DNA of 53,521 nt from an uncultured Clostridia bacterium (lineage in GTDB: Bacteria > Bacillota > Clostridia > Christensenellales > UBA1242): NCBI GenBank assembly GCA_947623775.1, contig CANQHL010000001.1:1-53521 (forward strand), read 5' to 3'. The notes below the pieces were generated by a model. That model was not told where the DNA came from. It was given only the letters and a program-made list of their open reading frames with translations, and did not search any database. This document shows, piece by piece, positions 6,169 to 52,899 of the stretch. The position numbers and the translations under genes are program-made. How positions within the stretch are numbered: the stretch's first letter is position 1; each line of letters starts with the position of its first letter.

Positions 6169-7041
6169 ATGAAAAAAGAAGAACTTGAAAAAATTCATAG
6201 CAAGAAAAAGATATTAAATTACTTTTTAAGACGTGATATAACAAGCACCGAAGAAATATTAAGTATTTTTCAAAAAATGCCAGGGGCGATAAGAGGGGAA
6301 AGTTCCAAGGGTTATCCTTATGTGTTTGTGCCGGGCAAGGCAAAAAACAAAGTTTTGTTGACCGCGCATTGTGACACGGTATGGGATGGCAAAGTAAATT
6401 GCAAACAAGATGTCAAGTATAAAAAAGGAGTGTTTTCTTCTGGAAACAAATCTGTCGGAATAGGTGCTGATGATAGGGCGGGGATTGCAATGCTTTATCT
6501 ATTAAAAAACAGCGGCAATTCACTTTTAATCACCACCGGCGAAGAAAGAAAAATGAGTTGTTCAAGATATTTGAGCGAAAGGGAATACGAACTTATAAAT
6601 GATCACAATTTTATAGTTCAACTTGATAAGTGTGGCAACAAGGAATTCAAGTGTTATTCTGTTGGAAGCGAGGAATTTATAGAATATATAAAGCAGCGTA
6701 CCGGCTTCAAATATATCAACCCATATTCATATACAGACATAGTTTCCTTATGCAAAACCATATGCGGTGTAAATTTGTCTGTAGGATATTACAATGAACA
6801 TTCGGCGGATGAATATTTGATTTATGATGAATGGAAAGAAACATTTAAAGCGGCAAAAAAGCTTATAAAAAATTCTCGAAAGTTTGAACTCGATAAAAAA
6901 AATATTGATGAACTTTATGAAGATGAGGACAAATTTGGATACAATGATTTCGACCTGCTAGATCTTATAGAACAGATGAATGAGGAAATAAAAAGAGAAA
7001 ACAAAGATGGATATTATGATATTCCTGAAATTGATTTATAA
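6169..7041 (+). CDS. M28/M20-like zinc peptidase with a roughly 50-aa acidic C-terminal extension
   Basis: LLTAHCDTVWDG, GIGADDRAGIAML and TTGEER match the metal-ligand motifs of co-catalytic zinc peptidases. The tail contains FDLLDLIE and ends YYDIPEIDL. Confidence 0.55.
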   Translation: MKKEELEKIHSKKKILNYFLRRDITSTEEILSIFQKMPGAIRGESSKGYPYVFVPGKAKNKVLLTAHCDTVWDGKVNCKQDVKYKKGVFSSGNKSVGIGADDRAGIAMLYLLKNSGNSLLITTGEERKMSCSRYLSEREYELINDHNFIVQLDKCGNKEFKCYSVGSEEFIEYIKQRTGFKYINPYSYTDIVSLCKTICGVNLSVGYYNEHSADEYLIYDEWKETFKAAKKLIKNSRKFELDKKNIDELYEDEDKFGYNDFDLLDLIEQMNEEIKRENKDGYYDIPEIDL

Positions 7042-7118: not shown

Positions 7119-7144
7119 AAAAAATCCGCTTAGCGGATTTTTTT
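7119..7144. terminator. Bidirectional intrinsic terminator between convergent genes
   Basis: AAAAAATCCGC-TTA-GCGGATTTTTTT: a perfect GC-containing stem flanked by an A-run and a T-run. It overlaps the stop codon of the minus-strand gene. Confidence 0.7.
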
Positions 7145-7430
7145 ATTTTTCATTATCGGTTGTAAACTCGCGATAACCTTTTTCAAATTGTCTTTGAGAA
7201 ATTGGATCAAGTTTGAAAAGAAGTCCAAACAGTTGACCGACATGCAATTTTTCCTCGTCGACGATGTCTTGTATTGTTGCTCGTGCCACAGGATCGTCGG
7301 TGCTGAATAGGTGATTTTCATATTGAATGATGGCTTCAAGTTCGCCTATAATGTCCTCTCTGCAATTTTGAGTGGTAATCAAATTGTTTGACCGATTGCT
7401 GTTATCATAAATATTGAAAAATCGTCTCAT
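7143..7430 (-). CDS. EncFtn-like (encapsulated-ferritin-type) two-helix ferritin-like protein
   Basis: GELEAIIQYENH...DIVDEEKLHVGQLFGLLFKLDP matches the ExxE/EEKxH di-iron motif pattern of the EncFtn/Flp family as I recall it. GGAGG RBS upstream of the ATG. Confidence 0.6.
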   Translation of the reverse strand: MRRFFNIYDNSNRSNNLITTQNCREDIIGELEAIIQYENHLFSTDDPVARATIQDIVDEEKLHVGQLFGLLFKLDPISQRQFEKGYREFTTDNEK

Positions 7431-8221: not shown

Positions 8222-8436
8222 AAGTTGATTGATAGTAAAATAAAAATATAAAAGTTAACAATCATTTGCATTCAAGGGTGTTTAAGGCAAAAGATTATCA
8301 ATCTTTAAAACCGTTTAAAGAGTTCTTGGAGAGAATCTTATTGATTTTCGTCTAAGAAGCGAAAAAGTTAATGGCTAACTAATGTGATAAATTTTTAAAT
8401 GGCAAACATTTATGTAATGCTATAATGGAGGAAAAA

Positions 8437-8895
8437 ATGGAAATAAAAGATGTATACTTATTCACAATTTACTACAATCAAACTTCAAATAATAAAAGTG
8501 ATGAAAAATTGATATATTGGGATAGTGACGACATTTATCAACTTTCCAATCTTCCTCAAAACACAGTTTTTGTATGTTGTGAAAAATTGGTTAAAGAAAC
8601 AAAAAAGTTTGACGAGGTAAAAAATTACGCGTTTGGTCGCGAGCTTACCGACCAAGACCTTGAAGAGGAACTTGCAAATAATCGTGATGAAAAGGCAAAT
8701 GGGTATATCGCTCATCTACTAGACAGCTACTCGGAAATTGAGGGGGTATTTTGTATCTTCAAAAATAAAGACAAAATATGCGCCTATAATATTTCGCATG
8801 CCGCATGTGAAGTGATGTCCGAAGAACAAATCAAAGACGGGAGGGTTATGAAAAACGTCAAATTTGATGAAAGTGATTATTTGGATTTAGAGTAG
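8437..8895 (+). CDS. YLDLE-tail family protein, member A
   Basis: GGAGG at 8427-8431 favours ATG 8437 (MEIKDVYLF). Shares with the 12961..13428 protein an N-terminal beta segment, the DDIYQLSNLPQNTVFV block, the YAFG block and FCIFKNKDKICAY (compare FIFKNTDKIFSF). Ends DESDYLDLE-stop. Confidence 0.8.
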   Translation: MEIKDVYLFTIYYNQTSNNKSDEKLIYWDSDDIYQLSNLPQNTVFVCCEKLVKETKKFDEVKNYAFGRELTDQDLEEELANNRDEKANGYIAHLLDSYSEIEGVFCIFKNKDKICAYNISHAACEVMSEEQIKDGRVMKNVKFDESDYLDLE

Positions 8896-12034: not shown

Positions 12035-12521
12035 TTATTCCAAGTCAATATAAGGTCTATCATAAAATCGAGGGTCAACAAATTCAGGGTTATCATCAGA
12101 CTTCTCTTGTGTTGCATTAATTTCATTAATGTGAGCAGGGCTAACAAGCTTTCCCGCTTTTTTACTTCCGTAATCAAAAATGCCGTTTTGAGTTTTATAA
12201 ATCATCAATTCATTTTTATAATCTTTTTTACAATCAACTACAATTTCATTAAGATGTTTTAGGTATTTTATGTATTTGAGAGAATCAGGCAGCGCTTTAA
12301 TTCTCTTAACTTCATTTTCCACATCTGCAATAGAAGCAGGGTAGCCAATAAAAAAAACATCCGTCGCTTTTTGGATTTTGTCCTAGTTTGTAGACGTAGT
12401 CGACATCACTTGGTAAATTTAATTTTTTAATATCATCTTCATCAGTTTCAATGTCTGTAAGGCCTTTATCAAAAGCCTGCGGATTTGTTACCGACCTGAT
12501 ACAATATTTATATTTTCCCAT
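12035..12521 (-). pseudogene. YLDLE-tail family member B, split by a +1 frameshift in an 8-nt homopolymer (track ORFs 12312..12521 and 12035..12322)
   Basis: The upstream ORF reads ...DDIKKLNLPSDVDYVYKLGQNPKSDGCFF and then runs out of frame through T8 (A8 on the + strand, 12350-12357). Removing one T gives ...CFFIGYPASIADVENEVKRIK..., which restores the family [YF]-x-I-G motif and joins the downstream ORF ending DRPYIDLE. A perfect promoter and a GGAG RBS lie upstream. Confidence 0.75.
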
Positions 12522-12537: not shown

Positions 12538-12566
12538 ATTATAGCTGATTTAAAGCATCTTGTCAA
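12538..12566 (-). promoter_or_regulatory. Consensus sigma-A promoter for family member B
   Basis: The minus strand reads TTGACA (12566-12561), a 17-nt spacer, then TATAAT (12543-12538), followed by GGAG and the ATG at 12521. Confidence 0.65.
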
Positions 12567-12707: not shown

Positions 12708-12908
12708 ATGATGATTGAACCATCAATTGATAGTTTACTTAACAAGGTAGGCGGGAATAGATATGTGCTTTGCAATGTAATCGCAAAAAGAGCAAAAGAA
12801 ATTGAAAGTGTAAGGAGACTTGAACTTGCCGACCAAGACAAAAAGGCGATAAGTATTGCTTGTGAGGAAGTTGCAAACGGCAAGATAAAGCCATCAGAGG
12901 AAAAATAA
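12708..12908 (+). CDS. rpoZ: DNA-directed RNA polymerase subunit omega
   Basis: MMIEPSIDSLLNKVGGNRYVLCNVIAKRAKEI matches the conserved omega N-terminus (PSIDxLL...RYxL...AKRAR). 66 aa. Confidence 0.9.
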   Translation: MMIEPSIDSLLNKVGGNRYVLCNVIAKRAKEIESVRRLELADQDKKAISIACEEVANGKIKPSEEK

Positions 12909-12930
12909 AAAAGTCAAAACACAAATAAAA

Positions 12931-12962
12931 GCACTCCGAGTTAAAAAGTGGAGTGCCTTTTT
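12931..12962. terminator. Bidirectional terminator shared by rpoZ and the convergent tail-family operon
   Basis: GCACTCC-(12-nt loop)-GGAGTGC, flanked by an A-run upstream and a T-run downstream. Confidence 0.65.
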
Positions 12963-13428
12963 ATTCCAAATCCAAATATGGTTTATCTTCAAAGTTTGGC
13001 TTGTAAAGTATGCTTCTGTTAAGTTTGCCATCAAAAATGCAGTTTGAGGGCAATAAAGTCGCATTTTTTCGCGGAAAACTGAAAATTTTATCTGTGTTTT
13101 TGAAAATAAAATTAGTTTTTGAAACTGATTCAAAGTTTTCTCTTAAATATTTAAGAAATGTCACATAATTTGAGTTTGTATTTTTTGAATATTGTAAATT
13201 TATAAGATTTTTATCAACATCTTGAAATTTTATTTTTTCACCAATAAAAAAAGTTTTGTTTTCAACATATTTGTTGCTTATTTTATCATATCTCATACAA
13301 AATACCGCCACGGTTTTCTCGGGTAAACCGGTGACATTAAATATGTTGTTATTATCACTGAATTGTTCTTTGATTTTTTCTTTTTTCTTATTATCAAAAT
13401 ATAAAATTTTATATTTGTAAATTATCAT
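12961..13428 (-). CDS. YLDLE-tail family protein, member C (last gene of the 5-gene operon)
   Basis: 155 aa with MIIYKYKILYF beta start, NIFNVTGLPEKTVAVF, TFFIGEKI, FIFKNTDKIFSF and LLPSNCIFDGKL blocks. Ends EDKPYLDLE-stop. Confidence 0.85.
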   Translation of the reverse strand: MIIYKYKILYFDNKKKEKIKEQFSDNNNIFNVTGLPEKTVAVFCMRYDKISNKYVENKTFFIGEKIKFQDVDKNLINLQYSKNTNSNYVTFLKYLRENFESVSKTNFIFKNTDKIFSFPRKNATLLPSNCIFDGKLNRSILYKPNFEDKPYLDLE

Positions 13429-13448
13429 TATGTTTTGTTCCTATTAAA

Positions 13449-14246
13449 TTATTCTAAATCATCATAAGCCTTACTTTCTGGGTCGTAAAATCCCTCTGCA
13501 TTGAAAAGTGCGGGACTTAAAATCTTTGTATTTTTGTCAATAATTGGGTGAATTGTCCCTGTTTTGTCTTTAAAAGCATTTGAAAGGTTGTGGCTTTTCA
13601 TAAAATCATATAGTGACTTATCTGCCAACATTACCTGTGATAATGAAAGAGGCGTTCCAATGGCAAAAGTCTCGATATTGATTTGTTCATTGTCTGGCGA
13701 CAAATCGAAAAGTTCAATGTAATTTTCTTTTGAGCTGGTTATTTGTACTTCCTCTAAATTGTGACTTTGAAGTTCATAGTGCTTTATATATCCTTCTGTA
13801 TATGAATAAACAAAGCGTGGAATATTTCTTTCAATGTTAGGATAACTTGCCGTAAGAGCAAAATGCCTTATTTGATTTTTATTGTTTCCGCTTTTGGTGA
13901 ACAAGATTGAGGATGGAAGAAGATTTGTTCTATCAGAAAATTCAACCAATGGTCCTTTATATAGGTGAAAAAGGGTTTTTGCACCTGTTCTTTTAAACTT
14001 TTTTAATTCCTGTGAATTTTCTCCATAAATAAGTTCTGCTTTTTCACGCGAAATCTTTTCGCCGATGAAATAGGATTTTGAATTTCCGTTTTTCTTGGTT
14101 AAAATAACCATATTTGTATCTTCGGGCAGTGGTATTTTGAAAATATCATCGGTATTAAAATGTTTTGTTGCAATCAAATTGAATTCGCCCTTGAAGAATT
14201 GAATTTCCACATCATCTGAAATTATTTTTGGTTTCAATGGTTGCAT
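13449..14246 (-). CDS. YLDLE-tail family protein, member D (apparent internal duplication of the family module)
   Basis: 265 aa. First half has DDIFKIPLPEDTNMVIL, SYFIGEKISREKAELIYGENS and NLLPSSILF. Second half repeats the pattern with TFAIGTPLSLSQV and KILSPALF. Ends ESKAYDDLE-stop. Confidence 0.85.
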   Translation of the reverse strand: MQPLKPKIISDDVEIQFFKGEFNLIATKHFNTDDIFKIPLPEDTNMVILTKKNGNSKSYFIGEKISREKAELIYGENSQELKKFKRTGAKTLFHLYKGPLVEFSDRTNLLPSSILFTKSGNNKNQIRHFALTASYPNIERNIPRFVYSYTEGYIKHYELQSHNLEEVQITSSKENYIELFDLSPDNEQINIETFAIGTPLSLSQVMLADKSLYDFMKSHNLSNAFKDKTGTIHPIIDKNTKILSPALFNAEGFYDPESKAYDDLE

Positions 14247-14274
14247 TTTTACCTCCGCTTAAGTAATAAAAAAT

Positions 14275-14865
14275 TTATTCTAGGTCTAAATATCCGTTAT
14301 CTTGATAGGTGCTTTTAATTTCCTCAGACTCGGAACCAGCATTTTGAGTCAAATTTTTATAATTGCTAGAATGCTTATAATATCCCTTTTCATCAAAGCA
14401 ATTTTCGTCAACAAATCCGTATTTGCATAAAAAGTCTGTTGCCCATATAGTTTGGGATTCGCTTCTAAGAAGAACAAGTCCGTCAAGGTAATACTTCTCA
14501 TTTTCTTTTTTAATATAAGGTGATTGAATTGAAATGCTTGTTAAAGGTGGGTTGTCGTTGATATATTTTTGTGATGACAAAAACTTTGAATAGCCGGACG
14601 GAAACAATTCTCTAATTTGTTCCCTTGAATAGTATTTACCTATGCAGTAAACAAGGTGATTGTAAGGACGTGATGATTTTGTCTCCCCATCATCGGCTAT
14701 CATTGCCACTTGCCTTTTAAAAAGAATTATGTTTGCATCTTTCGGAACGGGCATTGTGATATTGGACAGTTTGCAATCATCAATATCATATTTTGCAATA
14801 GGATTTATTGAATTGTCTGGGCCCACACTTGCAAATTCCACAAAAAATTTTTCAGTTGTTCTCAT
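14275..14865 (-). CDS. YLDLE-tail family protein, member E
   Basis: 196 aa with DDCKLSNITMPVPKDANIILF, VYCIGKYYSREQIRELF and the insertion KYYLDGLVLLRSE, which is shared with member G (RYQYDGWFLLRDG). Ends QDNGYLDLE-stop. Confidence 0.85.
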   Translation of the reverse strand: MRTTEKFFVEFASVGPDNSINPIAKYDIDDCKLSNITMPVPKDANIILFKRQVAMIADDGETKSSRPYNHLVYCIGKYYSREQIRELFPSGYSKFLSSQKYINDNPPLTSISIQSPYIKKENEKYYLDGLVLLRSESQTIWATDFLCKYGFVDENCFDEKGYYKHSSNYKNLTQNAGSESEEIKSTYQDNGYLDLE

Positions 14866-14874
14866 AATGTCTCC

Positions 14875-15300
14875 TTATTCTAAATCAAGATATCCGTTGT
14901 CACTGAAATCAGAAAGTTTGCCGTTTTCATTTATCATGTCTTTATCGATAAGATGAACGTTCAAGATGTGTGACAGTGGGAAAATATTTCCCGATTTCAT
15001 TATAATGGCATTTTTTAAATGATGTTTTTGTATGTATTTGTACTGAGTTGACGCTTCTCCAAACTTTTCATAAATTTCCCGAGATGTAAACGATGTTCCT
15101 ATGCAATAAGCATCAACATTTTTTGGATTTGAATAAATGCCGTCAATGAGTTCATCTTTTTCATAAAGAGTGATTAAATCTGCATTTTTTGGAATGTTAA
15201 CTTTAAAAATATCCTTAGCTTGTATTTCTTGCTCATTGTCGGGCGTAAGGATTTTGTTTTGAGAATATTTATAAAAATTTACAAAATATTTTTTGTTCAT
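14875..15300 (-). CDS. YLDLE-tail family protein, member F
   Basis: 141 aa with KYFVNFYKY, KDIFKVNIPKNADLITL, AYCIGTSFTSREIYEKFGEAS and NIFPLSHIL blocks. Ends SDNGYLDLE-stop. Only 9 nt separate it from member E. Confidence 0.85.
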   Translation of the reverse strand: MNKKYFVNFYKYSQNKILTPDNEQEIQAKDIFKVNIPKNADLITLYEKDELIDGIYSNPKNVDAYCIGTSFTSREIYEKFGEASTQYKYIQKHHLKNAIIMKSGNIFPLSHILNVHLIDKDMINENGKLSDFSDNGYLDLE

Positions 15301-15313
15301 TTTCTCTCCATTT

Positions 15314-15943
15314 TTATTCGATTTCTATAACATCGTCATCATAATTTTCTTCATCTGTACAAATTTCTTCATCATATAAACTGTCTGGATTGACTGTTGA
15401 ATTATTGATAGATGCTGTTTTGCTGATAAATCCGTTGCTATCAATAAGGCTTTTATCAAGAAGATTGCCAGCATAACCCCAGCCGTATGCAAATGAACCA
15501 TCACGAAGAAGAAACCATCCATCATATTGATAACGCCCGGTGACAGGGTCTTGAGAAATAGGTAAACCTTCATTGAATAGTTTGCAGACGTAAACAGTGT
15601 GTGCAGGGTTTCTACCACCTTGTAATTCTGCTTCACCTTCGAGGATAAATTGATATTCAGCTGAATTTTCGCCAAAAATATCGATAATTTGTTGTTTTGT
15701 AAGATAAGTGCCAATCATAAATGATTTACTGTTCGCACACGTTTCTGTTATTTTTGGCTCTTTTTTAAAAAGTCGTTTTTTTTCAATAACTTCATAATGT
15801 TCCAAAATAATGCCTATGGCGTTGTCTGGTATTTGTCCCAAATCATCAAATCCAAAACTTGGAATATCGCGTGTTAAAATTGTTCTATTGTTAATGTCTT
15901 TAAAAGTTGCAACTGTTTTGAAATAGACTCGCTTGGTTGCCAT
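15314..15943 (-). CDS. Tail-family protein, member G (first gene of the operon; degenerate tail VIEIE)
   Basis: 209 aa with RVYFKTVATF, FDDLGQIPDNAIGIIL and SFMIGTYLTKQQIIDIFGENSAEY blocks. The acidic C-terminus ends NYDDDVIEIE-stop. GGAGG RBS upstream. Confidence 0.8.
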   Translation of the reverse strand: MATKRVYFKTVATFKDINNRTILTRDIPSFGFDDLGQIPDNAIGIILEHYEVIEKKRLFKKEPKITETCANSKSFMIGTYLTKQQIIDIFGENSAEYQFILEGEAELQGGRNPAHTVYVCKLFNEGLPISQDPVTGRYQYDGWFLLRDGSFAYGWGYAGNLLDKSLIDSNGFISKTASINNSTVNPDSLYDEEICTDEENYDDDVIEIE

Positions 15944-15971
15944 TTCAGCCTCCTAACTATTAATATAATTA

Positions 15972-16000
15972 ATTATATCAATAAAATAAATAATTGTCAA
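15972..16000 (-). promoter_or_regulatory. Perfect consensus sigma-A promoter for the five-gene tail-family operon
   Basis: The minus strand reads TTGACA (16000-15995), a 17-nt spacer, then TATAAT (15977-15972). AGGAGG and ATG 15943 follow about 25-30 nt downstream. Confidence 0.7.
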
Positions 16001-16032: not shown

Positions 16033-16061
16033 TTGACAAAATAAATATTTTATATTATAAT
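16033..16061 (+). promoter_or_regulatory. Perfect consensus sigma-A promoter for the divergent gene 16084..16476
   Basis: TTGACA (16033-16038), a 17-nt spacer, then TATAAT (16056-16061), followed by AAGGAGA and ATG 16084. Confidence 0.7.
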
Positions 16062-16083: not shown

Positions 16084-16476
16084 ATGGAAGAAAAGGTTGA
16101 CAAATTGTTATCATCAGCAAGAGTGCGTGGAGAGTGGGAATATAAAGCACTTCTTGATAGATATATTGGTGATAACGCCAAAGACGAGACAAAAGAAGAT
16201 GATGTAAGGCTTGCAAAAGTTATTAGACAATTGCTTGATTTTTATAAAGAACTTGGAGACAAGGAAAGGTATACTTTTGTTAGTGATGTTCTTGACTATT
16301 ACACATTGGTTGTAAAAGATGAGAAAGATATTTTTGGCAGACAAACACTTGAATTTCATGTGCCAGACAAAATTCGCAAAAGTTTATATAAGGGCTTTTT
16401 GGAGTTTCATGAAAACAGAAACCAAGAATTGTTAAATGATGCAGATGAATTATTTAAAGATGAAACTGAATTATAA
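16084..16476 (+). CDS. Hypothetical acidic, predicted-helical 130-aa protein
   Basis: ORF with a strong RBS and promoter. No motif recognised. No signal peptide or TM segment. Ends LFKDETEL. Confidence 0.6.
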   Translation: MEEKVDKLLSSARVRGEWEYKALLDRYIGDNAKDETKEDDVRLAKVIRQLLDFYKELGDKERYTFVSDVLDYYTLVVKDEKDIFGRQTLEFHVPDKIRKSLYKGFLEFHENRNQELLNDADELFKDETEL

Positions 16477-19042: not shown

Positions 19043-19060
19043 GAGTAGGAAAACCTACTC
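19043..19060 (-). terminator. Intrinsic terminator overlapping the stop codon of gene 19055..19795
   Basis: The minus strand reads GAGTAGG-TTTT-CCTACTC followed by TTTATTTTAT. The stem includes the final Glu and stop codons. Confidence 0.55.
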
Positions 19061-19795
19061 TAAGTCAAGAAATAATCCATTGTTGTAGTTATCATGTTCT
19101 GTTACGCTTTGTGGGTTAGGTGAGTGTACATTCTTTTGTTCATTTTCGACTCTTTTTAAAAGAGGGGCGAGATATTTAAATCCACTTAAAGCCACAACCG
19201 CTTCGGTCAAGTCTGTAAAATGTCGAAAATATTCTTCTACGCAAGGTTCGTGTGGATTTTCGCTAACTACTCTATTAACAAATGAACTTAAATTTAAATT
19301 ATGCAAAATTATATCATAAACATTGCCGTAATTTGAAATCATATCTTGTATTTTTGATTCACCATATTTGTCAAATGCGTTTTTTAACTTAGTTAAATTA
19401 TATTTTGCTATGGGGTATTTATATTTTTCTTCATCAGTAATAAAAAATATTTCCTTATAAGCCGTTGCAATTGACATTTTCATTTCATATTCGTTGGTAA
19501 ATTTTTCAAGATTGGTAATCTTGGTTTTAAAATATGATGATGGCAAATGGCAATGCCGTAAATCTTGAATTAAAACACATATATTTGGTAATTTTTCATT
19601 TTGGTCATCTGAATTATCATGAAAATCACCTGTTAATATATAAGGTGGTGCATCATTAGCTAAACTTTTTGCGATTTCAAGATACTGCTTCCATTTTTCA
19701 TAAATGTATGCGTTTTGAATTGTTATTTCGGGGCAGGGTTGAGTTGATAGAAATTCAGCCAACTTCTCTGCAGCATAAGCATCAGAAAATGTCAT
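19055..19795 (-). CDS. Hypothetical helical protein carrying the family C-terminal tail (FLDLE) on an unrelated body (member H)
   Basis: 246 aa with an AGGAGA RBS. The N-terminal and central sequence shows none of the A-G family blocks. A polar linker (ENEQKNVHSPNPQSVTEHDNYNNG) is followed by LFLDLE-stop. Confidence 0.75.
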   Translation of the reverse strand: MTFSDAYAAEKLAEFLSTQPCPEITIQNAYIYEKWKQYLEIAKSLANDAPPYILTGDFHDNSDDQNEKLPNICVLIQDLRHCHLPSSYFKTKITNLEKFTNEYEMKMSIATAYKEIFFITDEEKYKYPIAKYNLTKLKNAFDKYGESKIQDMISNYGNVYDIILHNLNLSSFVNRVVSENPHEPCVEEYFRHFTDLTEAVVALSGFKYLAPLLKRVENEQKNVHSPNPQSVTEHDNYNNGLFLDLE

Positions 19796-19845: not shown

Positions 19846-20718
19846 CTAGTTTAGATTGTCTTGTATTTCACTTATTTTATCATTTTCAATGGAAAAATTG
19901 TAAATTATATTTTTATTATTGGAAATTGCGAAGCAGGAACATGGGTCAATCATATAAAAATAACTTACATCACCAAAAAATCCTTTTAATGTTTTTTCAT
20001 TTAGAGAACTTTTGAGATTGGATGAAAGATAATCCATTGCACCCGAGAAATCACCGCATTTGACTGCACTCATAAATTTATAAGGCAAAAGTTCATTTGG
20101 AGACATTTCTTCATTGCGTGAAAAATCTTGTTCTCGCAATTTAAGTCCATCTTTGTCAATAAAATATTTGCGGGTAATATTTTTATAATCTTCATTTTCT
20201 TCAAAAAGAGAGAACCCATTTTTATCAATTACAATGTCGCGCGCTGAAAACATTTTTGCAGAATTTGTCTTAATATTATAACAAATGATGTTTTTTTTAT
20301 CATTTTTATCAAATTTTACATAGTTTATGTGGTAAAAATGTCCAACAGTGATATTTGAAACGGGGTGAAACAGGTTGATGATTTTTTTATGATTTACTCC
20401 ATAAAATGTGATTTCTTTTTGTCCAATTTCAATTTTTGATGTGATGCCGTAGCTTTTAAAATCATGCACTACAACGTTTTCTGCAGAAAAGCCATCTAAT
20501 AAAAATACAAGACGTTTGCCGTCTTTTTCGATTATTCTATAATATGGAGCGGGTGTAGAGAAGTTGATTTCAAATGAAAATCTATCACGTTTTTCGGGGT
20601 AGATATATATTGGGTCTAGTATATCATCTAGAATAACATGTTCATTTATTGAAATATGTTCGTTTATGTCTCTATATTTAACCACGCATGGATATGAAGT
20701 GTAAATAATAGTTTTCAT
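19846..20718 (-). CDS. Hypothetical 290-aa protein, apparently co-transcribed with member H
   Basis: ORF 50 nt upstream of member H on the same strand. No recognisable motif, signal peptide or TM segment. Ends EIQDNLN, so it lacks the tail. Confidence 0.6.
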   Translation of the reverse strand: MKTIIYTSYPCVVKYRDINEHISINEHVILDDILDPIYIYPEKRDRFSFEINFSTPAPYYRIIEKDGKRLVFLLDGFSAENVVVHDFKSYGITSKIEIGQKEITFYGVNHKKIINLFHPVSNITVGHFYHINYVKFDKNDKKNIICYNIKTNSAKMFSARDIVIDKNGFSLFEENEDYKNITRKYFIDKDGLKLREQDFSRNEEMSPNELLPYKFMSAVKCGDFSGAMDYLSSNLKSSLNEKTLKGFFGDVSYFYMIDPCSCFAISNNKNIIYNFSIENDKISEIQDNLN

Positions 20719-20862
20719 AATATAAAAATATGAGAGAATAAAGAGATTAATTACAAAATTTTGTCAAAAAATGATTATAAATACATAAAATAAACCAATT
20801 TGATGTAAGTTTATGTATAAATTCCTTTATTTGGTCTATAATTTGCGCAAGGAGTGAAAATT

Positions 20863-21582
20863 ATGAAAGGAATTTGGAAAAACAGCGAAGTAAAAGAATT
20901 ATTTTCCGTGGTCGAGGATTATAAGGGAAGCAATCGTTCATTGAAAGATGCGTTTATCTCTCATGCACAAAAATATGGACGAAAACCAAACAGTGTGAGA
21001 AATTATTATTATCACGAAGTGGATAATTTGAAAAATGACGGAAAAAGATTGGAAAAACTTGGAATAGATTTATCTCTTCACAATAAGGCGGCAATATCTT
21101 ACTTTTCGCAGGAGGAGGAAGAAAAACTGATGAAAGAAGTGGATGAAATGGTGAAAAAGGGAGTTTCTGTGAGAAAAGCATGCCTAAGTTTATCAGGTGG
21201 AGATGTAAGTCAAATGTTGAGGTATCAAAATAAATACAGAAATTATATTTTAAAAAACAAGCCGCAACCTCCAAAAGACAATGTTATAACTTTTAAAAAG
21301 GCACAGCGAACATTGACAGATGGCGAGGTTCAATCTTTGTTTATGGGGCTTGTGAGACTTGTGAAGAAAAACGCCCTTGAAGAAAGTGAGAGTTTATATA
21401 AAGAAAAGTTAAGCAAGGCAAATGATGAATTGCGAAAACTGCTTTTAAAACTTTCTTTGCGGGAACGAGATGTTGAGAAATTAAAAGCGGAAATGGACAA
21501 ATTGAAAAACGACAACATGTTGTTGGAAAGCAAAATGTTTCAAATGCGGTGCAAAAAAGCCGAAGAGTTGAATAAAGAATAA
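20863..21582 (+). CDS. Putative DNA-binding protein with two Myb/SANT-like (RsfA-like) repeats and a C-terminal coiled coil
   Basis: AAGGAG RBS before ATG 20863. WKNSEVKELFSVVEDY...SVRNYYYHEV and a second degenerate repeat resemble RsfA/Myb-type helix-turn-helix repeats. The C-terminus is heptad-rich (LRERDVEKLKAEMDKLKNDN). Confidence 0.4.
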   Translation: MKGIWKNSEVKELFSVVEDYKGSNRSLKDAFISHAQKYGRKPNSVRNYYYHEVDNLKNDGKRLEKLGIDLSLHNKAAISYFSQEEEEKLMKEVDEMVKKGVSVRKACLSLSGGDVSQMLRYQNKYRNYILKNKPQPPKDNVITFKKAQRTLTDGEVQSLFMGLVRLVKKNALEESESLYKEKLSKANDELRKLLLKLSLRERDVEKLKAEMDKLKNDNMLLESKMFQMRCKKAEELNKE

Positions 21583-21722: not shown

Positions 21723-22037
21723 TTAAATTTGTGGTTCTTCAAGTTCAATTCCACGTCTTTCCAAACTCCTTTCGCCAACAATCAAAGATGGTGAGAATAT
21801 TAATTTTTTTGGTAATGGAGTTTGTCCGCCTGCGGCTGGAGGAATAGGTGGGTCTTTTGGATTTATATCAAATATATCCTTTTTGTTGTAAAAATCATCT
21901 TTGATTTCAGGAAGTGAACCGATTTTTCTATAGTCGTTCATTATAGGACTTAAAATATAAACTTTTTCGCATTTGATTGATTCTTTAAAATCATCTGGAT
22001 TAAATTGGTTTTTTTTGTTATCACTTATTTTTTTCAT
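21723..22037 (-). CDS. Hypothetical 104-aa protein
   Basis: ORF with a GAGGG RBS and a Pro-rich centre (PKDPPIPPAAGGQTPLP). No family assignment. Confidence 0.45.
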   Translation of the reverse strand: MKKISDNKKNQFNPDDFKESIKCEKVYILSPIMNDYRKIGSLPEIKDDFYNKKDIFDINPKDPPIPPAAGGQTPLPKKLIFSPSLIVGERSLERRGIELEEPQI

Positions 22038-22136
22038 TTTACCCTCGCTTTATCTACATTATAGCATATAAATAAAATTTTGTCAACATTTAAAAAAAGA
22101 TAGCCTTATTTTATTAAATATGTTATTATATATAGT

Positions 22137-25112
22137 ATGAAAATAAAATTATATCAAAATATAACATCATATGAAGCAGTAAAAAGTATGTTGTCGAAAA
22201 TAGACAATTCTGATATTAACAAGGATCATGTTGTAATTGTGCCAGATAGGTTCTCTCTTCTTAGCGAAAAATTACTCTTGCAAATTTTTCCCCAGAAATC
22301 ATTGTTTAATGTTAGAGTTAGAACGCTAACGAGTTTTTCTGTTGAACTTTTGAAAAGATTTAATATTGAAATTAATCCAGAGGATAATTTGTCCGGTGGT
22401 GAGGTTTTGTTGCTTACAAGAAAAGCGATTATGAATGTTAAAGATAATCTTACGACATTCAAAAAAACTAAGATTGCCTTTTGTCAAGAAATAAGCAAAA
22501 TAATTTCACAACTCAAAAGCAGTGGAATAACGTCGGATATGTTAGCCGAAGATAACGAAAAGGCAAAATATCATGATCTAAAATTAATTATGGAAGAATA
22601 TGAACGACTTTTAGGTGATAAAGTTGATGCAAACACAAGAATGAAATTGCTAAACGACAATTTCACTGGGCATGAGTTGAAAGATACAGAAGTATATTTT
22701 GCCGGATTTGACGCGTTCACCAAGGTTGGCTATACTTTTATCAAAAATCTCGTGATGGCAATCGGGCAGGTTAGCATATCCATGGCAACTCCGCTCGACC
22801 ATGGGAATGAATATATATATGAAAATGATATTGTAAAAAAATTGACGGCACTTTCCAAAGAAATTGGTGCAATGGTTGAGGTTGAAACAGACAGGGCAAA
22901 TTTTTCACCTCAGAGGGAAGCAGTGGTTTGCGGTACATTTTCATATCATCAAGTAAAATGTGACAATGAAGGGTTTTACAATCTTTATTCGGCACAAAAT
23001 GTCACAGAAGAAATAGAGTCTGTTGCCAAGCATATTTTTTATTTGATTCATAAAGGTTACAGATTTAAGGACTTTTCCATTGCGGTGAGTGATTTGCAAA
23101 AATATCAAGTTCAGATAGAAAATATTTTTGATAGATATGATATTCCATATTATATAGACACATCTCTTACAGCGGATAAAACTCTTCTTGGTAAATTGAT
23201 TTTCGACTTTTTTGAAGTTTTGGAATATGGATACAGTGGCGAAAAACTTTGCAATCTTTTTTCAAATATTTTGCTCGGAGATAATAGTGCGTTGATTGAT
23301 AAGTGCCAAAGATTTAGAATTGATAATAAGGCAAAGTATAAATTATATCTCGAAAAGGAATTTGCGTTTGCAGATGTGTTGGCGGGACTTGATAAAAATA
23401 ACGATGCCAAAGCATTGGGGGGAGTTTTATTAAACCTTTTGGAAAGAGTTGAGGAAAGATTTAATGAGGTGTTGACTCTTTTGCAAGATAAGTCCTATTT
23501 AAAAGAAAGAAATATAAATGTGCAGACCTATGAAATTATGCGGGAGAGTATCGAACTTATAAACAAATATGGTTGTGATGATTCGGGGGAATATCAAAAG
23601 GCATTAAAACTATTGCTATCTTTCGTTGAGGTGTCCACCGTTCCAACATTTGTAGACGGAGTGATGATTGGCTCGGCGGCAGAAAGTTATTTTGGCGAAA
23701 GTAAGGTGCTTTACATAATGGGCGGACAAGCCTTGCCGTTAACATCAAATGATAATGGACTTTTAAGTGATGATGATTTAAGCAAATGCGTTCATGAGAT
23801 TGAACCAACAATAAAAATGATAAACAGGCGTGCAAGATTTAAACTTTTCAATTTATTGACACTTGCTCAAGAGGGGATTATAATCACATATCAAAGTTTA
23901 AGTGAAGAGGGGAAAAGGAATGGGTTGCCAACATATATAACTTCACTAAATGATATTTTTTCGGTTTTGCCAATTCGTGCAAGTGATGTGTTTTTTGTTA
24001 AAAACAGCAACAATCTTGAACTTGCATTACTAAGTTGCGAAAAGGAAAAGAGTAAGAAAAATTATTTATTTAAAGAGCGGGATAAACTAAGCGTTGATGC
24101 CAAGGAATTGTTTTTCCCAGACAATAAAATAAAAGTTACTGAACTTGAAAATTATTTCAATTGTCCATTCGGGCATTTTGTGAATTATGGTTTGAAATTG
24201 AAGGAGTTCTCAACTGAAGAACTTGACCAAAGGGATATTGGAAACATTTGTCACAAAAATTGTGAAATTTACATCAAGAAGTTGATGAAAGAAGATTTTA
24301 AATCCAAAATCGACCATAAAAAATTTATTGAGGATAATTTTGATTTTATTTTAACTAATCTTGGCCTTGATGAAAAATTGCAACATCTTGACGAGAAAGA
24401 ATCTTTTTTTCGATATATAAAAAGGCAAATGCTTGCCAATTTAAATGATATTGACCGTGAACTTGAAAAGTCCTCATTCCGACCGAAATATGTTGAAATG
24501 AAATTTGATAACTATAAAATTCAAGTGAGGGACAACGCATTTACACTAATTGGCAGAGCAGACCGGGTAGATGAAAAAGATGATTATTTCAGAATTATTG
24601 ACTATAAAACAGGGAATGAAGGCAATGTTTTAAAAAGCCTTTTCTATGGAGAGAAATTGCAATTGTTTTTATATCAAAAAATTGCAAGTGAAACTTTGAA
24701 AAAAATGTCGGCAGGTGGATATTATTTCAACGCCCGCCTCGATTATGCCGATGATGATGAAGATCGGGTGATTTTAAAAGGAATTGCACCAAGTGATGAT
24801 AAGATTATTTCTTATCTTGACAAAGACATAGAACAAACAGGCAAAAGCACAATCCTTTCAATTGCAAAGGCGGCGCAGGGGGGATATAAAGGTGCAGGGG
24901 TGACAAAATTTGAATTTAGTTCACTCAGTGACTATGCTTTAAATGTGGTAAAAGAGGGAATTGAAGAGATATGTGATGGCTATATTGCTCCAAAACCAAC
25001 ATCTTCCTCTTGCACATATTGCAAACTTCGACCTTTATGTGGATATGAAGCGGCACAGGGAATTAGAAAAAATGATAAAACAAAAATAAATTTTAAAAGC
25101 GAGGAGAAATAG
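22137..25112 (+). CDS. addB: ATP-dependent helicase/deoxyribonuclease subunit B (AddB/RexB)
   Basis: 991 aa immediately upstream of addA. C-terminal RecB-like nuclease motif (IIDYKTG) and a four-Cys Fe-S arrangement (CPFGHF ... CTYCKLRPLCG). Confidence 0.85.
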   Translation: MKIKLYQNITSYEAVKSMLSKIDNSDINKDHVVIVPDRFSLLSEKLLLQIFPQKSLFNVRVRTLTSFSVELLKRFNIEINPEDNLSGGEVLLLTRKAIMNVKDNLTTFKKTKIAFCQEISKIISQLKSSGITSDMLAEDNEKAKYHDLKLIMEEYERLLGDKVDANTRMKLLNDNFTGHELKDTEVYFAGFDAFTKVGYTFIKNLVMAIGQVSISMATPLDHGNEYIYENDIVKKLTALSKEIGAMVEVETDRANFSPQREAVVCGTFSYHQVKCDNEGFYNLYSAQNVTEEIESVAKHIFYLIHKGYRFKDFSIAVSDLQKYQVQIENIFDRYDIPYYIDTSLTADKTLLGKLIFDFFEVLEYGYSGEKLCNLFSNILLGDNSALIDKCQRFRIDNKAKYKLYLEKEFAFADVLAGLDKNNDAKALGGVLLNLLERVEERFNEVLTLLQDKSYLKERNINVQTYEIMRESIELINKYGCDDSGEYQKALKLLLSFVEVSTVPTFVDGVMIGSAAESYFGESKVLYIMGGQALPLTSNDNGLLSDDDLSKCVHEIEPTIKMINRRARFKLFNLLTLAQEGIIITYQSLSEEGKRNGLPTYITSLNDIFSVLPIRASDVFFVKNSNNLELALLSCEKEKSKKNYLFKERDKLSVDAKELFFPDNKIKVTELENYFNCPFGHFVNYGLKLKEFSTEELDQRDIGNICHKNCEIYIKKLMKEDFKSKIDHKKFIEDNFDFILTNLGLDEKLQHLDEKESFFRYIKRQMLANLNDIDRELEKSSFRPKYVEMKFDNYKIQVRDNAFTLIGRADRVDEKDDYFRIIDYKTGNEGNVLKSLFYGEKLQLFLYQKIASETLKKMSAGGYYFNARLDYADDDEDRVILKGIAPSDDKIISYLDKDIEQTGKSTILSIAKAAQGGYKGAGVTKFEFSSLSDYALNVVKEGIEEICDGYIAPKPTSSSCTYCKLRPLCGYEAAQGIRKNDKTKINFKSEEK

Positions 25113-28509: not shown

Positions 28510-31110
28510 ATGTGGTCAAATCTTTTAAATATAAGCGATTCACTAAGTAAATTCTTCGAACAATTAAAAGACTCTATTCATTTTGAGGGCTTTTTAATTA
28601 TTGCCGCTGCGGTCGAAGTGTTATTTATTTTATTGTTCGCAATTAAGTCTGTTTTCTCGTATGAAGCGAGATTAAAACGTATTCTTGACAAATGCAACAC
28701 TTGGCTTTTCCAAAACAAAAAGTTGGACTCGACAAACATTAAGTCGTTCAACAAACTTGTAAAGAAAGGACCAAAGCGTTTTTCATATTATTGGCAACAA
28801 TTTATTCTAAATCGTGATGGTGGTCCAACCGCGTATATGACCGAAGAAAATATAATTGAAAAACCTCTTCGTACAAGCAGTTGGCAAAACAATGTGAAAA
28901 ACTTGGAATTGCTCACGGGAATTTGGGCTGTTATTTCTCTTTTAATGGGAATTGCTTCATTCACCGGGACAAACCTATCAGTGCAAACATTTTCACTCGC
29001 CTTTGTTTTGCCAAGTGTAGTTTTGATTTTAGGTGCAATTGCCGTATTATTTATTAAAGGTAAAAGGGCGTTAAACCTTGATGATATATATCATCTTTAT
29101 CACATCTATGCTCGTTTCGTAACAAAAGCATGTGATGAACTTCCACCTTATATTGACTTTGATCTTTTATTTACGCCAAAAGAAATAGAAAAGGGAAATG
29201 CTCAAATTCGAGAATATTATGAAGAGAAAGCAAGACAAGCAAAGGAAGAATTTGAACAAGCCCAAAAAGCAGAACAAAATCAAATGGATTTCAATTTCAG
29301 AGATGTCGGAGTTGATGGTGCACTTCTGCTTGAAAGAGCAATGAAAGAAAGTGAAATTTACATAACAACAAAAAGCAACACTCTTGCTCAAATTGCAAAA
29401 TTGGAAGCTGAGAGAGATGCGTTAAAACGAAACTTTGAATCTGTACAAATGGATTTGCAAAGAAAATTACAGGCTTCCAAGGAGAATATCCAAAGCCTTA
29501 TTGAACAGCAAACAACCACAACAAATAGATTTGAAGTCGGCCGTTTAAGAGACAGACAAGACAAGGAAATAAAAAAGCAAGAGGACTTGCAAAAAGATTA
29601 TGATAAAGAAGAGAAAAACTTTGAAAAATCAAATGCAGAACTTGAAGAGCAAATCAAAGAATTAAGTGATTCCATGGTTAAAGCACTTGATCAAGCCGAA
29701 AAGGGTATGACTGCAGAATATCAATCATTCTTTAAAAAAGTCATGAAATCCGCTTATGCCGTTGCGGAGGGAAAAGTTGCAAATGAAAAGAAATCACTTG
29801 AAGATGATAAAAACGAGACCGAACAAGAACTTATAAGTGTACAAACACAAATTAAAAGATTACTTGATGAAAATGTTACTTTAAGAGCAAAGATTGAACA
29901 GCTTACAAATGAAATTGAACAAAAGACTCAGCAATTGGAACAAAAGGATAGTGTACCTAAACAAGAAGGCAATTATGATGAAAATGGCAATTTTGTTTAT
30001 CCTGATGGCTCATATCATGATGTAAAGGGTTTCTTCCATGATGTAGATGGCAGGGTTTATGATATGAATGGTAGACTTGTTATTGAAAATGAAAACATCA
30101 CCCAAGAGGAAATTGATGCAGAAGAATTGAAAAACAACATGCTCGATTCATTTGGACCTGTAGCAGTTGAAGAGGAAAGCGAAAAAGAGATTCCGGAAGA
30201 TGTTGAAGAGGAAATACAAGGAGACCTTGAACAAGTTCATTATGATGATGTTGACAATTACACAGAGGAATTAAATGAAGAGCCACATGTATATGATAAT
30301 ATCGATGAAGCGCAACTAGAAAACATTACAAGTGATGGCAATCCTCAAACAGGTGAAGAGGAAGATGGTTATAACGGATTAAATGAGGCTCCAGAAATTT
30401 CTTCCATTGATGAAGAAGAACCCGTTCCAGAGGAAAAAACAGCAGAAACTGAAGAAGTAAATGAACCTGTCAATGCGGAAGAACAGCCTGACGTGATTGA
30501 AGAAATTCCACAAGAGGAAGTTGAAGAAGAAACAAAAGAGAACGCATTGGAAGAGGAGAAACCACAAGAAGAGCCACAACAAGAAGTGCAAGAGGAAGAA
30601 GTTCAAAAACAAGAAGAAGTGCCACAAAAGGAAGAACCACCAAAAGCGAAACCAAGACCTGCTTCACGCGGAAGAAAACCTGGGACATCAACAGCATCAA
30701 AACCCGCTCAAAGAAAAAAGAGGGCAAAACCTCGTAAGCGTGTAGAGAAAAGTGATGTCGAAGAAGTTGTTGAAAGTACAGAGCCAAAGAAAAGAGGCCG
30801 TCCTAGGAAAAATCCTCAAGTGACCGAAAATGATATAAATAAGATAAACGAATTAATTGGTGCCGAAGAAGAGAAACTTGAAAATATGAAAAACCAACTT
30901 TCGCAAGACATCAATCAAGCAATAGATAACAATGTTGATATAGAGAAAGAAAAGACCGAACTCATTGAAGCGGTTGAAGCATTAAGAAAACAAGCAGACG
31001 CAATGAAAGCAGGAAATGAGAGTTCTGAAGAAGTATCAGCAGTAAACAAGCGTATCGAAGATCTTATAAATGAAATATCAAACTTAAACAAGAAAAATGG
31101 TGAGGAATAA
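28510..31110 (+). CDS. Membrane-anchored coiled-coil protein with an acidic low-complexity region and two AT-hook motifs
   Basis: Three hydrophobic helices in the first ~190 aa, a long heptad-rich segment, then an E/Q/P-rich tract. Followed by SRGRKPG (30667-30684) and KKRGRPRKNP (30787-30816), the canonical GRP-core AT-hook. A second coiled coil forms the C-terminus. Confidence 0.75.
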   Translation: MWSNLLNISDSLSKFFEQLKDSIHFEGFLIIAAAVEVLFILLFAIKSVFSYEARLKRILDKCNTWLFQNKKLDSTNIKSFNKLVKKGPKRFSYYWQQFILNRDGGPTAYMTEENIIEKPLRTSSWQNNVKNLELLTGIWAVISLLMGIASFTGTNLSVQTFSLAFVLPSVVLILGAIAVLFIKGKRALNLDDIYHLYHIYARFVTKACDELPPYIDFDLLFTPKEIEKGNAQIREYYEEKARQAKEEFEQAQKAEQNQMDFNFRDVGVDGALLLERAMKESEIYITTKSNTLAQIAKLEAERDALKRNFESVQMDLQRKLQASKENIQSLIEQQTTTTNRFEVGRLRDRQDKEIKKQEDLQKDYDKEEKNFEKSNAELEEQIKELSDSMVKALDQAEKGMTAEYQSFFKKVMKSAYAVAEGKVANEKKSLEDDKNETEQELISVQTQIKRLLDENVTLRAKIEQLTNEIEQKTQQLEQKDSVPKQEGNYDENGNFVYPDGSYHDVKGFFHDVDGRVYDMNGRLVIENENITQEEIDAEELKNNMLDSFGPVAVEEESEKEIPEDVEEEIQGDLEQVHYDDVDNYTEELNEEPHVYDNIDEAQLENITSDGNPQTGEEEDGYNGLNEAPEISSIDEEEPVPEEKTAETEEVNEPVNAEEQPDVIEEIPQEEVEEETKENALEEEKPQEEPQQEVQEEEVQKQEEVPQKEEPPKAKPRPASRGRKPGTSTASKPAQRKKRAKPRKRVEKSDVEEVVESTEPKKRGRPRKNPQVTENDINKINELIGAEEEKLENMKNQLSQDINQAIDNNVDIEKEKTELIEAVEALRKQADAMKAGNESSEEVSAVNKRIEDLINEISNLNKKNGEE

Positions 31111-52201: not shown

Positions 52202-52519
52202 TTATTCATTTCCATGTTCACATTCAACATCGTATGCACTGCTATCTGGTTTATTTTTATATAAATTGCCTCTATTTGCACTTGCCCAAATATAATTATC
52301 GCAGCATTCTGTTTGAATTGTAAATGATTCAGATTCAGAATCTGCCCATGATTTTACTTTATGTAAAACATCTTTTCCATTTTCTTCAATAACTGCATAA
52401 TTGAATTGATAATGCAAATCGGTCAAGTCCTTGTTGCAACCTGTAAAAGTAAATGCTGCTCCAAGCAATATACCTGATGCCATAGTGCAATAAATAAGTT
52501 TTTTCAGTCCGCCTTTCAT
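52202..52519 (-). CDS. Small lipoprotein
   Basis: Signal peptide ending in the lipobox FTGC (ILLGAAFTFTGCNKD). 105 aa. Confidence 0.6.
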   Translation of the reverse strand: MKGGLKKLIYCTMASGILLGAAFTFTGCNKDLTDLHYQFNYAVIEENGKDVLHKVKSWADSESESFTIQTECCDNYIWASANRGNLYKNKPDSSAYDVECEHGNE

Positions 52520-52899
52520 AATTCACCATCCTTGTGATTATTATATCATAAATATTCGTTATTGTCAATATGAAATTTTGTGGCACTCAGTGACAAAATT
52601 CAATTTTGCCTGTTGCTTTAAAGTATTTGTTCAATATTTTATTTATAATCTTTGTTGGACAATGGAAATTCAATAAGGAAATAAGGATAAGGGAAACTTG
52701 TTTTAAGGTGATTTAAAGTGATGGATTTGAAAATTTAATTGAAAGGGGAAGTTGTTTAACAAGATTTTAAATCTTCATTTTTTATATAAATGCTGTTTTA
52801 AGTGTGAAAAATGTATAATTATAATGTAATATATTAGATATAAATATTAACCTAATAAATATATTATTAAAAATATTTTAAAAAAATTTTGAAAAAAGG

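Follow-up and report, generated by a model that had tools for sequence, protein, structure and literature searches.

A tandem array of divergent orphan paralogs sharing a short C-terminal peptide in an uncultured gut Clostridia lineage

The DNA analyzed here, called the window throughout, is the whole of a 53.5-kb contig (53,521 nucleotides, nt; GC content 33%) from an uncultured Clostridia bacterium (contig CANQHL010000001.1, GenBank assembly GCA_947623775.1). Its feature of interest is a group of five tandem minus-strand genes, named G, F, E, D, and C from upstream to downstream, whose products have related bodies and mostly end in the same short peptide, referred to as the tail. The closest genomes to the window were metagenome-assembled genomes (MAGs) designated "uncultured Clostridia bacterium" from rabbit ("Lapin") samples. 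The gene content of the window was core-chromosomal (ppdK, rpoZ, desulfoferrodoxin, addAB, glmS, priA, def, fmt, rsgA, rpe, and rpsJ) and included the sporulation genes spoIIP, spoIIR, sipL-like, sleB, and ypeB. Rfam and tRNA scans of the window returned no match. A first-pass annotation of this DNA had described the five genes as one tight operon running from position 15943 down to 12961 with intergenic gaps of 13, 9, 28, and 20 nt, and these coordinates were exact (Table 1). It had also described a purine-rich ribosome-binding site (RBS) ahead of every gene; all five were found, that of C being weak.

The consensus promoter reported upstream of the operon was confirmed as a sigma-70-type site matching at 12 of 12 positions, with an extended -10 TG at 15980-15979 and the -10 hexamer TATAAT at 15977-15972. 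Six perfect TTGACA-17-TATAAT sites were observed in the window compared to 0.05 expected (12538-12566, 15972-16000, 16033-16061, 22058-22086, 23856-23884, and 52540-52568), which indicates that the operon site is real, yet not unique. One perfect site falls within addB, and four others precede small open reading frames (ORFs): the site at 12566..12538 lies ahead of the frameshifted gene B2/B, that at 16033..16061 lies ahead of the divergent ORF 16084-16476, and the remaining two ORFs are at 21723-22037 and 52202-52519. Judged by their number, the perfect sites clearly appear to be functional signals in this genome. A TTGACT-17-TGnTATAAT version was kept ahead of the orthologous arrays in two related species (loci L001 and L010), and expression of the operon from this conserved, strong sigma-A-type promoter is probably high.

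At the downstream end, the hairpin directly past the stop codon of C folded stably on the minus strand (-15.3 kcal/mol, z -4.1) and on the plus strand (-13.6 kcal/mol, z -4.3). It is followed by U-runs on both strands and can therefore serve C and the convergent rpoZ alike, as the first-pass annotation had proposed. Within the operon, the minus strand contained just weak promoter-like sites (9/12) and one weak terminator-like site (5-bp stem). The simplest reading, we infer, is that G-F-E-D-C form a single transcription unit.

Proteins F and E both end in DNGYLDLE, D ends in KAYDDLE, and C ends in DKPYLDLE; gene A, a family member outside the operon, ends in ESDYLDLE. The consensus of the tail is [YF]-h-x-L-E-COOH, often preceded by Y-x-[DN]-[KD]-[NDS]. 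Eight window ORFs end in [DE][LI]E, comprising the five operon genes, A, B (YIDLE), and a further gene, H (FLDLE). Termini of the form [YF]xxLE were present in 6 of 51 window proteins compared to 0.036 expected (P ~3e-12). When counted anywhere in the window proteins, the same pattern occurred 12 times, 6 of them C-terminal, compared to 11 expected, showing no internal enrichment. The tail of G is degenerate (NYDDDVIEIE), and the ortholog of G ends in NKEIE. The tail that had been attributed to all five operon proteins is thus found in F, E, D, and C and not in G (VIEIE).

The [YF]xxLE pattern was used to gather 45 distinct tail-bearing proteins from the window and related loci. Constraint in these proteins extended beyond the pattern itself to Y(-10)-x-[DN]-[KD]-[NDS], to Ile, Leu, or Thr at -4, and to Asp (less often Glu, Asn, or Ser) at -3. 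Each of the six Leu codons was found at Leu(-2) and each of the three stop codons was in use, which argues for selection on the peptide and not on a DNA repeat. The tail is the most conserved element of these proteins. The linkers ahead of it vary widely in length and composition; one example is a PQ-rich linker of about 30 residues in L001:2570-3127. The tail was also found on a family of 213-227 amino acid (aa) proteins, without a match to the family hidden Markov model (HMM), at locus L007 of a sister genome and locus L013 of a related contig. It was absent from the distant body homologs P0023, P0024, P0025, and P0029, of which P0025 (by spoVG) and P0024 (by spoIIE) are single genes in other Clostridia MAGs, and from the internal domain of the fused protein D (domain 1). 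Because unrelated bodies carry the tail, distant homologs do not, and the linkers vary, the tail is best explained as a short linear docking motif on a tether rather than as part of the fold.

Full-text literature searches for the tail motif strings returned nothing relevant. Among known short motifs that it resembles, the beta-clamp-binding motif QL[SD]LF, the clathrin box, LIR, HbYX, and PDZ ligands each failed at one or more defining positions.

The ordered sequence blocks that had been noted by eye across the five bodies aligned in the family alignments. These blocks are beta strands at the N-terminus, the motif D-I-F-K..(L/I)P..(A/T), the motif Y.IG with a helix after it, a strand that is buried, and the block (L/I)(I/V)(D/S/P)…G. 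Pairwise BLASTP gave E-values of 6e-8 for E-F, 1e-5 for D-F, 2e-5 for F-G, and 8e-18 for A-C, and the family HMM matched C (4e-38), E (5e-26), F (1e-32), A (5e-49), and also D, with E-values for the set spanning 1e-26 to 1e-49. G was outside the HMM search set and was placed by the family alignments and by its pairwise matches to F and E. By these comparisons, G, F, E, D, and C are true homologs that share a domain of about 130 aa. The first-pass description of five paralogs was right as to homology, but D is a tandem domain duplication and the family reaches beyond the operon. In D, the HMM matched residues 13-117 and 140-265, placing domain 1 at about aa 1-135 and domain 2 at about aa 136-265, and the five operon members therefore hold six family domains. 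F is the minimal member, with a single alpha/beta domain plus the tail; E has a single domain carrying an insertion and a long polar linker, and G has a family domain bearing a large insertion and an acidic linker.

Identity between paralogs in the family alignment was only about 16-29%, and near-invariant body residues were limited to P37, G68, and G127 (protein F numbering). The lack of conserved catalytic-looking residues argues for a binding or structural protein and not an enzyme. The isoelectric points of the proteins range from 4.5 to 9.4, so the family is not made up uniformly of DNA mimics. No signal peptide or transmembrane segment was seen in the translations, and the subfamily of A has four conserved Cys residues (by eye). 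An AlphaFold2 model of F, built on a 21-sequence alignment, was a compact alpha/beta domain in which a beta-sheet is accompanied by two helices (mean predicted local distance difference test score, pLDDT, 87.6; predicted template-modeling score 0.76). In this model, residues 135-141 were disordered and the tail was not docked on its own domain.

Searches for a known relative of the body were negative. Foldseek searches with the F model gave a best E of 0.019 with a template-modeling (TM) score of 0.30 for PDB and a best E of 0.05 with a query TM score of 0.27 for BFVD, both short of the threshold set for a match (E<=1e-3 or TM>=0.5). The family profile found nothing below E 0.07 among PDB sequences, and Pfam, NCBIfam, PHROGs, and PADLOC scans of G, F, E, D, C, A, and H gave only sub-threshold chance matches. 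No known housekeeping family was therefore matched, and in the databases searched the body forms an orphan family for which neither sequence nor fold relatives could be detected.

Table 1. Features of the window discussed in the text, in window coordinates
Feature	Position	Strand	Description
Gene G	15314-15943	minus	ORF, 209 aa; RBS AGGAGG at 15954-15949
Gene F	14875-15300	minus	ORF, 141 aa; RBS GGAGAG
Gene E	14275-14865	minus	ORF, 196 aa; RBS AGGAG
Gene D	13449-14246	minus	ORF, 265 aa; RBS GGAGG
Gene C	12961-13428	minus	ORF, 155 aa; last gene of the operon; weak RBS AGGAA
Sigma-70-type promoter	15972-16000	minus	12/12 match; -35 TTGACA at 16000-15995; 17-nt spacer
Bidirectional intrinsic terminator hairpin	12927-12960	both	between C and rpoZ
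rpoZ	12708-12908	plus	convergent with C
Gene A	8425-8895	plus	156 aa; family HMM match; closest operon relative C
B2/B	12035-12521	minus	frameshifted family member (B 12035-12322, B2 12312-12521); own perfect promoter
ORF 16084-16476	16084-16476	plus	130-177 aa; divergent from the operon; own perfect promoter
Gene H	19055-19795	minus	246 aa; predicted helical body; no family HMM match; tail NNGLFLDLE
Gene I	19846-20718	minus	290 aa; no tail; upstream of H
M28/M20-like dizinc peptidase	6169-7041	plus	motifs HCDT, GADDRAG, GEE; also at L001 643-1500 and L015 3765-4619
VirD4/TraG-like coupling ATPase	39115-41169	plus	intact; 2 N-terminal transmembrane segments; Walker A/B motifs

Other carriers of the body or the tail lie near the operon. 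The B2/B reading frame is broken by one extra T (+1 frameshift) in a T8 run near 12,31x-12,32x. With T7 in place of T8, a single ORF would result that has the missing F-I-G-Y-P block and ends in RPYIDLE. The split in B2/B may reflect a pseudogene, an error of assembly, or phase-variable switching. The AlphaFold2 model of H was all-alpha and of low confidence (pLDDT 60), and Foldseek found no match for it, as expected at that confidence. The H homologs also have such tails, YINLE in P0043 and FIGLE in P0044. Gene I was 62-66% identical to its counterparts in two sister species and 34% identical to that in a water-deer caecum Clostridia MAG. Sequence-profile searches against PDB gave no match for H or I, and neither I nor the ORF 16084-16476 had a family or PDB match.

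The family was searched for in several public collections. When 1.84 billion representative proteins were searched exhaustively by HMM, 21 relatives came up, most of them belonging to rabbit-gut Clostridia, and a broader profile found about a dozen further proteins, none with Pfam domains. In a word-indexed search, 5.8 billion clusters yielded the window's own proteins only, and other word-indexed searches returned a few relatives from ENA, Logan, and NCBI. In JGI metagenomes, a degenerate DNA pattern for Y-x-[DN]-x-x-Y-h-D-L-E-stop gave 108 matches, of which 0 were family members. Carriage as mobile-element cargo was considered and set aside, as tblastn found no match to A in 50,697 phage records and none to F in 72,556 plasmid records.

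A scan of genome collections was probed with the neighboring gene I. In the sister MAG GCA_947624415.1, 8 tail genes were found upstream of ppdK and 5 after rpoZ, together with an H homolog; a second contig of this MAG held at least 5 more tail genes, and further contigs had runs of 6 and 9. Arrays in the sister genomes consisted of 3-9 consecutive tail-bearing genes and included one-, two-, and three-domain forms, and the position orthologous to A held an array of 8-9 genes in the sister species. The more distant relative from water-deer caecum had no tail genes near I. A comparison of copy number, which the first-pass annotation had suggested, thus revealed arrays whose gene content differs between species. 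Public data contain extremely few members of the family, yet it is highly expanded inside its clade.

Flanking genes and array genes differed in their conservation between the window and the sister MAG. Identities of flanking genes were 95% for PPDK, 89% for RpoZ, 84% for a 242-aa gene (20854-21582), 77% for MBL, 74% for AddB, 71% for Dfx, and 62% for I. In contrast, the best matches of the array and tail genes were 48% identical for A, 46% for F, 37% for D, 36% for H, and 29% for both E and C, and G had none. Overall, identity to the sister genome was 29-48% for the array compared to 52-95% for the flanking genes. The nonsynonymous divergence (dN) of F and D was about 0.5 compared to about 0.2 for most neighbors, and dN/dS was 0.22-0.31 where measurable, synonymous divergence (dS) between species being mostly saturated. 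These ratios indicate fast but purifying (relaxed) evolution, and positive selection was not demonstrated. A strain-level variant differed by 1 nt in 1,720 and was uninformative for dN/dS.

Gene content has also changed. Where the window has G-F-E-D-C, the syntenic array of the sister has one F-like and one D-like gene, a further double-domain gene, and two singles, and a third species (GCA_947589615.1) has no H beside I. In that third species the ortholog of G, P0014 (71% identity; L135 7667-8296), stands alone, surrounded by acetyltransferase and epimerase genes. The G pair had a dS of 0.54, compared to 1.3-2.4 for the other pairs compared across these two species, and this low value suggests that G reached the head of the operon recently by transfer or relocation. 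With duplication, fusion, translocation, and frameshift all visible in the sequences compared, this is, on its pattern, a birth-and-death multigene family. The array had been called "diversifying" in the first-pass annotation; the term is apt in that the array evolves faster than its neighbors and gains, loses, fuses, and breaks genes, but not in the sense of positive selection.

Several further genes adjoin the arrays. In three species the dizinc peptidase lies upstream of the A-type arrays, with no gap of other genes in L001 and L015, and it has a conserved acidic C-terminal tail of its own (DIPEIDL, DLPEIFL, or DIPEINL). Between the peptidase and the A-type array is a gene for a 95-96-aa protein (7143-7430, minus strand; L001 1608-1898) that is 88.5% identical between species; it has ExxH-like motifs that we take to be reminiscent of small ferritin-like proteins. 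At L007 (2435-3686 and 5897-8537) and L013 (3567-4901 and 7394-10034), intervals bordered by tail arrays contain genes for two 205-aa proteins, a 384-aa metallophosphoesterase, a 416-aa protein, and a 79-aa zinc-ribbon protein. The first of the 205-aa proteins matched Pfam HetE-N, a cell-death execution domain, at 25.1 bits against a cut-off of 25. Two distant homologs have giant neighbors in convergent orientation, of which that in L020 showed adhesin-type repeats only (YDG, MBG, and InlB B-repeat) and that in L135 had no Pfam match.

No toxin, effector-trafficking domain, or known defense protein was present beside any array examined, so the labels of immunity protein, effector, or decoy, offered in the first-pass annotation as a likeness, stay analogies. 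The VirD4-like protein scored 245 bits against NCBIfam conju_CD1115, for which the cut-off is 250. Its gene sits between degV and sipL-like/spoIIR/sleB/ypeB, and no other conjugation gene is in the window. Elsewhere in the window (28510-31110, plus strand), an 866-aa protein has N-terminal membrane segments, coiled-coil-like regions rich in Glu, Lys, and Gln, and an extremely acidic repeat region; it had no Pfam or NCBIfam match.

Taken together, these data are compatible with more than one role for the tail. In the reading we prefer, to which we assign a probability of roughly 40%, the tail is a portable C-terminal signal with one common reader, and delivery is its likeliest purpose. Each protein has three parts, namely a variable alpha/beta domain of about 130 aa that lacks enzyme-like invariant residues, a flexible linker whose length varies, and the invariant peptide at the extreme C-terminus, which is degenerate in G. 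The peptide would act as a portable short linear motif recognized through its free C-terminus by a single reader, and many different, fast-changing bodies would thereby be coupled to the same machine. The combination of many varied clients with one terminal handle resembles that of secretion substrates, and this analogy favors delivery or targeting, which could mean export or assembly into a larger structure; degradation would be a less likely purpose. The literal match of the tail to Y-x-x-x-E is notable as a sequence likeness. The VirD4-like ATPase is a candidate reader by virtue of its location on the same contig.

We also considered a more specific form of this proposal, which we regard as doubtful. 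Here the tail would be a previously undescribed class of C-terminal address label restricted to a small clade of spore-forming gut Clostridia, and a dedicated ATPase or receptor would read it, so that dozens of small, fast-changing proteins with several unrelated folds are exported or loaded into one shared structure; candidate readers would be the VirD4-like protein or an EssC elsewhere in the genome. A multigene family sharing a terminal signal is known already, whereas the terminal pentapeptide itself was absent from the literature searched.

Several observations weigh against a delivery signal. Core genes of a type VII secretion system (T7SS) were found neither in the 53.5-kb window nor in the related loci scanned by Pfam, and the VirD4-like ATPase is a solitary type IV secretion system (T4SS) component in the window, with no VirB4 or channel genes. 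Encapsulin and microcompartment shell families were likewise not found in the window, nor were they evident beside the arrays of the related loci. The lack of signal peptides and the four-Cys subfamily would fit residence in the cytoplasm better than export, and the modeled body of F is not a helical hairpin like those of known T7SS substrates. G, the first gene of the operon, lacks a proper tail. The tail would fit a degron, an oligomerization strand, or a modification site equally well, and all family sequences derive from metagenome assemblies.

Among the alternatives, one that concerns the bodies as much as the tail is that each body serves as a variable recognition module, which could be an immunity protein, a decoy, or a sensor of phage or competitor proteins, and that the tail couples all of them to a common intracellular effector or hub. 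This is unlikely in our estimation, although tandem arrays, fast divergence, gene turnover, high expression as judged from the promoter, and the absence of conserved catalytic residues would all be expected of such modules. The L007 and L013 arrays flank the protein at the HetE-N threshold, with the metallophosphoesterase nearby, and immunity proteins of Streptococcus suis that share a C-terminal region offer a precedent. However, no toxin or trafficking gene adjoins the arrays, PADLOC and PHROGs gave no match, the arrays are surrounded by housekeeping genes rather than situated in islands, and dN/dS was below 1 where measurable. A different possibility, and a slightly less probable one, is that the tail is a C-terminal degron for an AAA+ protease (ClpXP, ClpCP, or Lon) or its adaptor, and that the proteins are short-lived or removed jointly at a switch such as sporulation. 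Like ssrA-type degrons, the tail is extreme C-terminal, disordered, and portable over unrelated bodies; its N-D-N-Y stretch loosely recalls the AANDENY of the Escherichia coli ssrA tag, a likeness that serves as a lead and not a test. The organism presumably sporulates, given SpoIIP, SpoIIR, SipL, SleB, and YpeB in the window. Known bacterial C-terminal degrons, however, end in non-polar residues, and acidic replacements (ssrA-DD) block recognition by ClpX. The tail ends in Leu-Glu, with Glu as the last residue in all tail-bearing proteins collected. Dozens of strongly expressed tagged proteins would also compete for one protease, and paralog expansion with fast divergence is atypical of regulated-proteolysis substrates.

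The tail could instead be a self-assembly element that inserts into a groove or sheet edge of a paralog, producing hetero-oligomers or filaments with a structural or storage role. Co-expression of many paralogs, the probable high level of expression, the flexible linker, and the existence of fused two- and three-domain forms, which shows that the domains tolerate being strung together, are all consistent with this. We nevertheless consider it quite unlikely, because the internal domain of fused D has no tail, the unrelated helical H family has one, AlphaFold2 left the tail undocked from its own domain, and the invariance of the last residue suggests that a free carboxylate is recognized, not that a strand is added. 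That invariance of the terminal Glu, together with the invariant Tyr(-5), would also be expected if these residues were a site of modification or trimming by a LysW/RimK-type ATP-grasp ligase or by the M28/M20-like dizinc peptidase, which lies upstream of the A-type array in three species. LysW-type carrier proteins do use a conserved C-terminal Glu. Such carriers are single-copy, however, and not arrays of tens, an ATP-grasp gene was not found in the window, and the adjacency of the peptidase may be plain synteny among close relatives; we judge this explanation improbable. It is hardly credible that the ORFs are decaying or non-functional DNA whose similarity is left over from recent duplication, even though the B2/B copy is frameshifted and the family is extremely rare in public data. 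At identities of only about 16-29%, the genes retain open frames, RBSs, and a confidently predicted fold; the tail is kept despite synonymous variation, dN/dS is 0.2-0.3, and the promoter is kept across species.

If the address-label proposal were true, it would provide a new substrate-recognition logic for Gram-positive protein delivery and a cargo family with a new fold. A compact, transferable five-residue signal with its reader would be rare in Gram-positive bacteria and a useful tool, and the system would illustrate how one docking peptide came to serve a large set of clients in a lineage of gut commensals. Regardless of function, the array is a clean case of an orphan fold in birth-and-death evolution on a core chromosome. 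The host is uncultured, and the distribution of the family is very narrow, being limited to a few rabbit-gut MAGs.

The known systems compared with the tail include the YxxxD/E signals of the T7SS. A recent study of Streptococcus suis described variable immunity proteins whose common C-terminal region (EIC-CR/DUF6572) has a YxxxD signal that binds the T7SS ATPase EssC (PMC12558993). The likeness lies in a portable Tyr-x-x-x-Glu at the C-terminal end of many variable proteins of a multigene family; the signal of the known system is read by an ATPase. Y(-5) with E(-1) is present in C, D, E, F, and A, and F(-5) with E(-1) in H; G has neither pairing. The differences are that the conserved part here is about 5-10 residues at the very end, compared to a helical region of about 50 aa, that neither DUF6572 nor WXG100 was matched in Pfam, and that T7SS genes are missing from the window. 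The fold also departs from that of the known substrates, the body being predicted as alpha/beta and not as a WXG100-like helical hairpin or a four-helix bundle.

The C-terminal signals of T4SSs, such as the Glu-rich Legionella Dot/Icm E-block read by the VirD4/DotL coupling complex, are similar in that an unstructured acidic tail is found on a large, fast-evolving set of unrelated proteins, and a VirD4-like coupling ATPase is in the window. Those signals are loose compositional patterns, in contrast to the invariant pentapeptide seen here, and no other T4SS component is in the window. To our knowledge, effector translocation by Gram-positive T4SSs is not established. Cargo of encapsulins or microcompartments was rejected as a counterpart, there being no shell family in the window and the tail being 5-10 residues long, acidic, and non-helical, in contrast to targeting peptides of the GSL-type or amphipathic-helix pattern. 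The ssrA-like degrons resemble the tail in occupying the extreme C-terminus, in being disordered and portable, and in having an aromatic residue at -5 that follows Asn or Asp; the difference is that the tail ends in Leu-Glu rather than in non-polar residues.

Tethered C-terminal docking peptides include the chemoreceptor NWETF-COOH, which recruits CheR and CheB, the DDDIPF tip of SSB, and the C-terminal peptide of FtsZ. They share with the tail a length of about 5 residues at the extreme C-terminus, a variable flexible linker, and the role of a pure binding handle; the chemoreceptor pentapeptide is mentioned in PMC3062574. The sequences differ, and the arrangement is reversed, since in the known cases one conserved protein recruits many partners, whereas here many proteins carry one peptide. 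Finally, the orphan immunity arrays of polymorphic toxins resemble this locus, where the genes stand in tandem, turn over rapidly, and encode small, divergent proteins that are probably cytoplasmic and strongly expressed. They differ in that no neighboring toxin and no match to a known immunity family were found here, and in that immunity arrays are not known to share a terminal tag. The first-pass annotation had remarked that a common tag would be unusual for immunity, effector, or decoy proteins, and the comparison bears this out; the shared tail is indeed the unusual part of the array.

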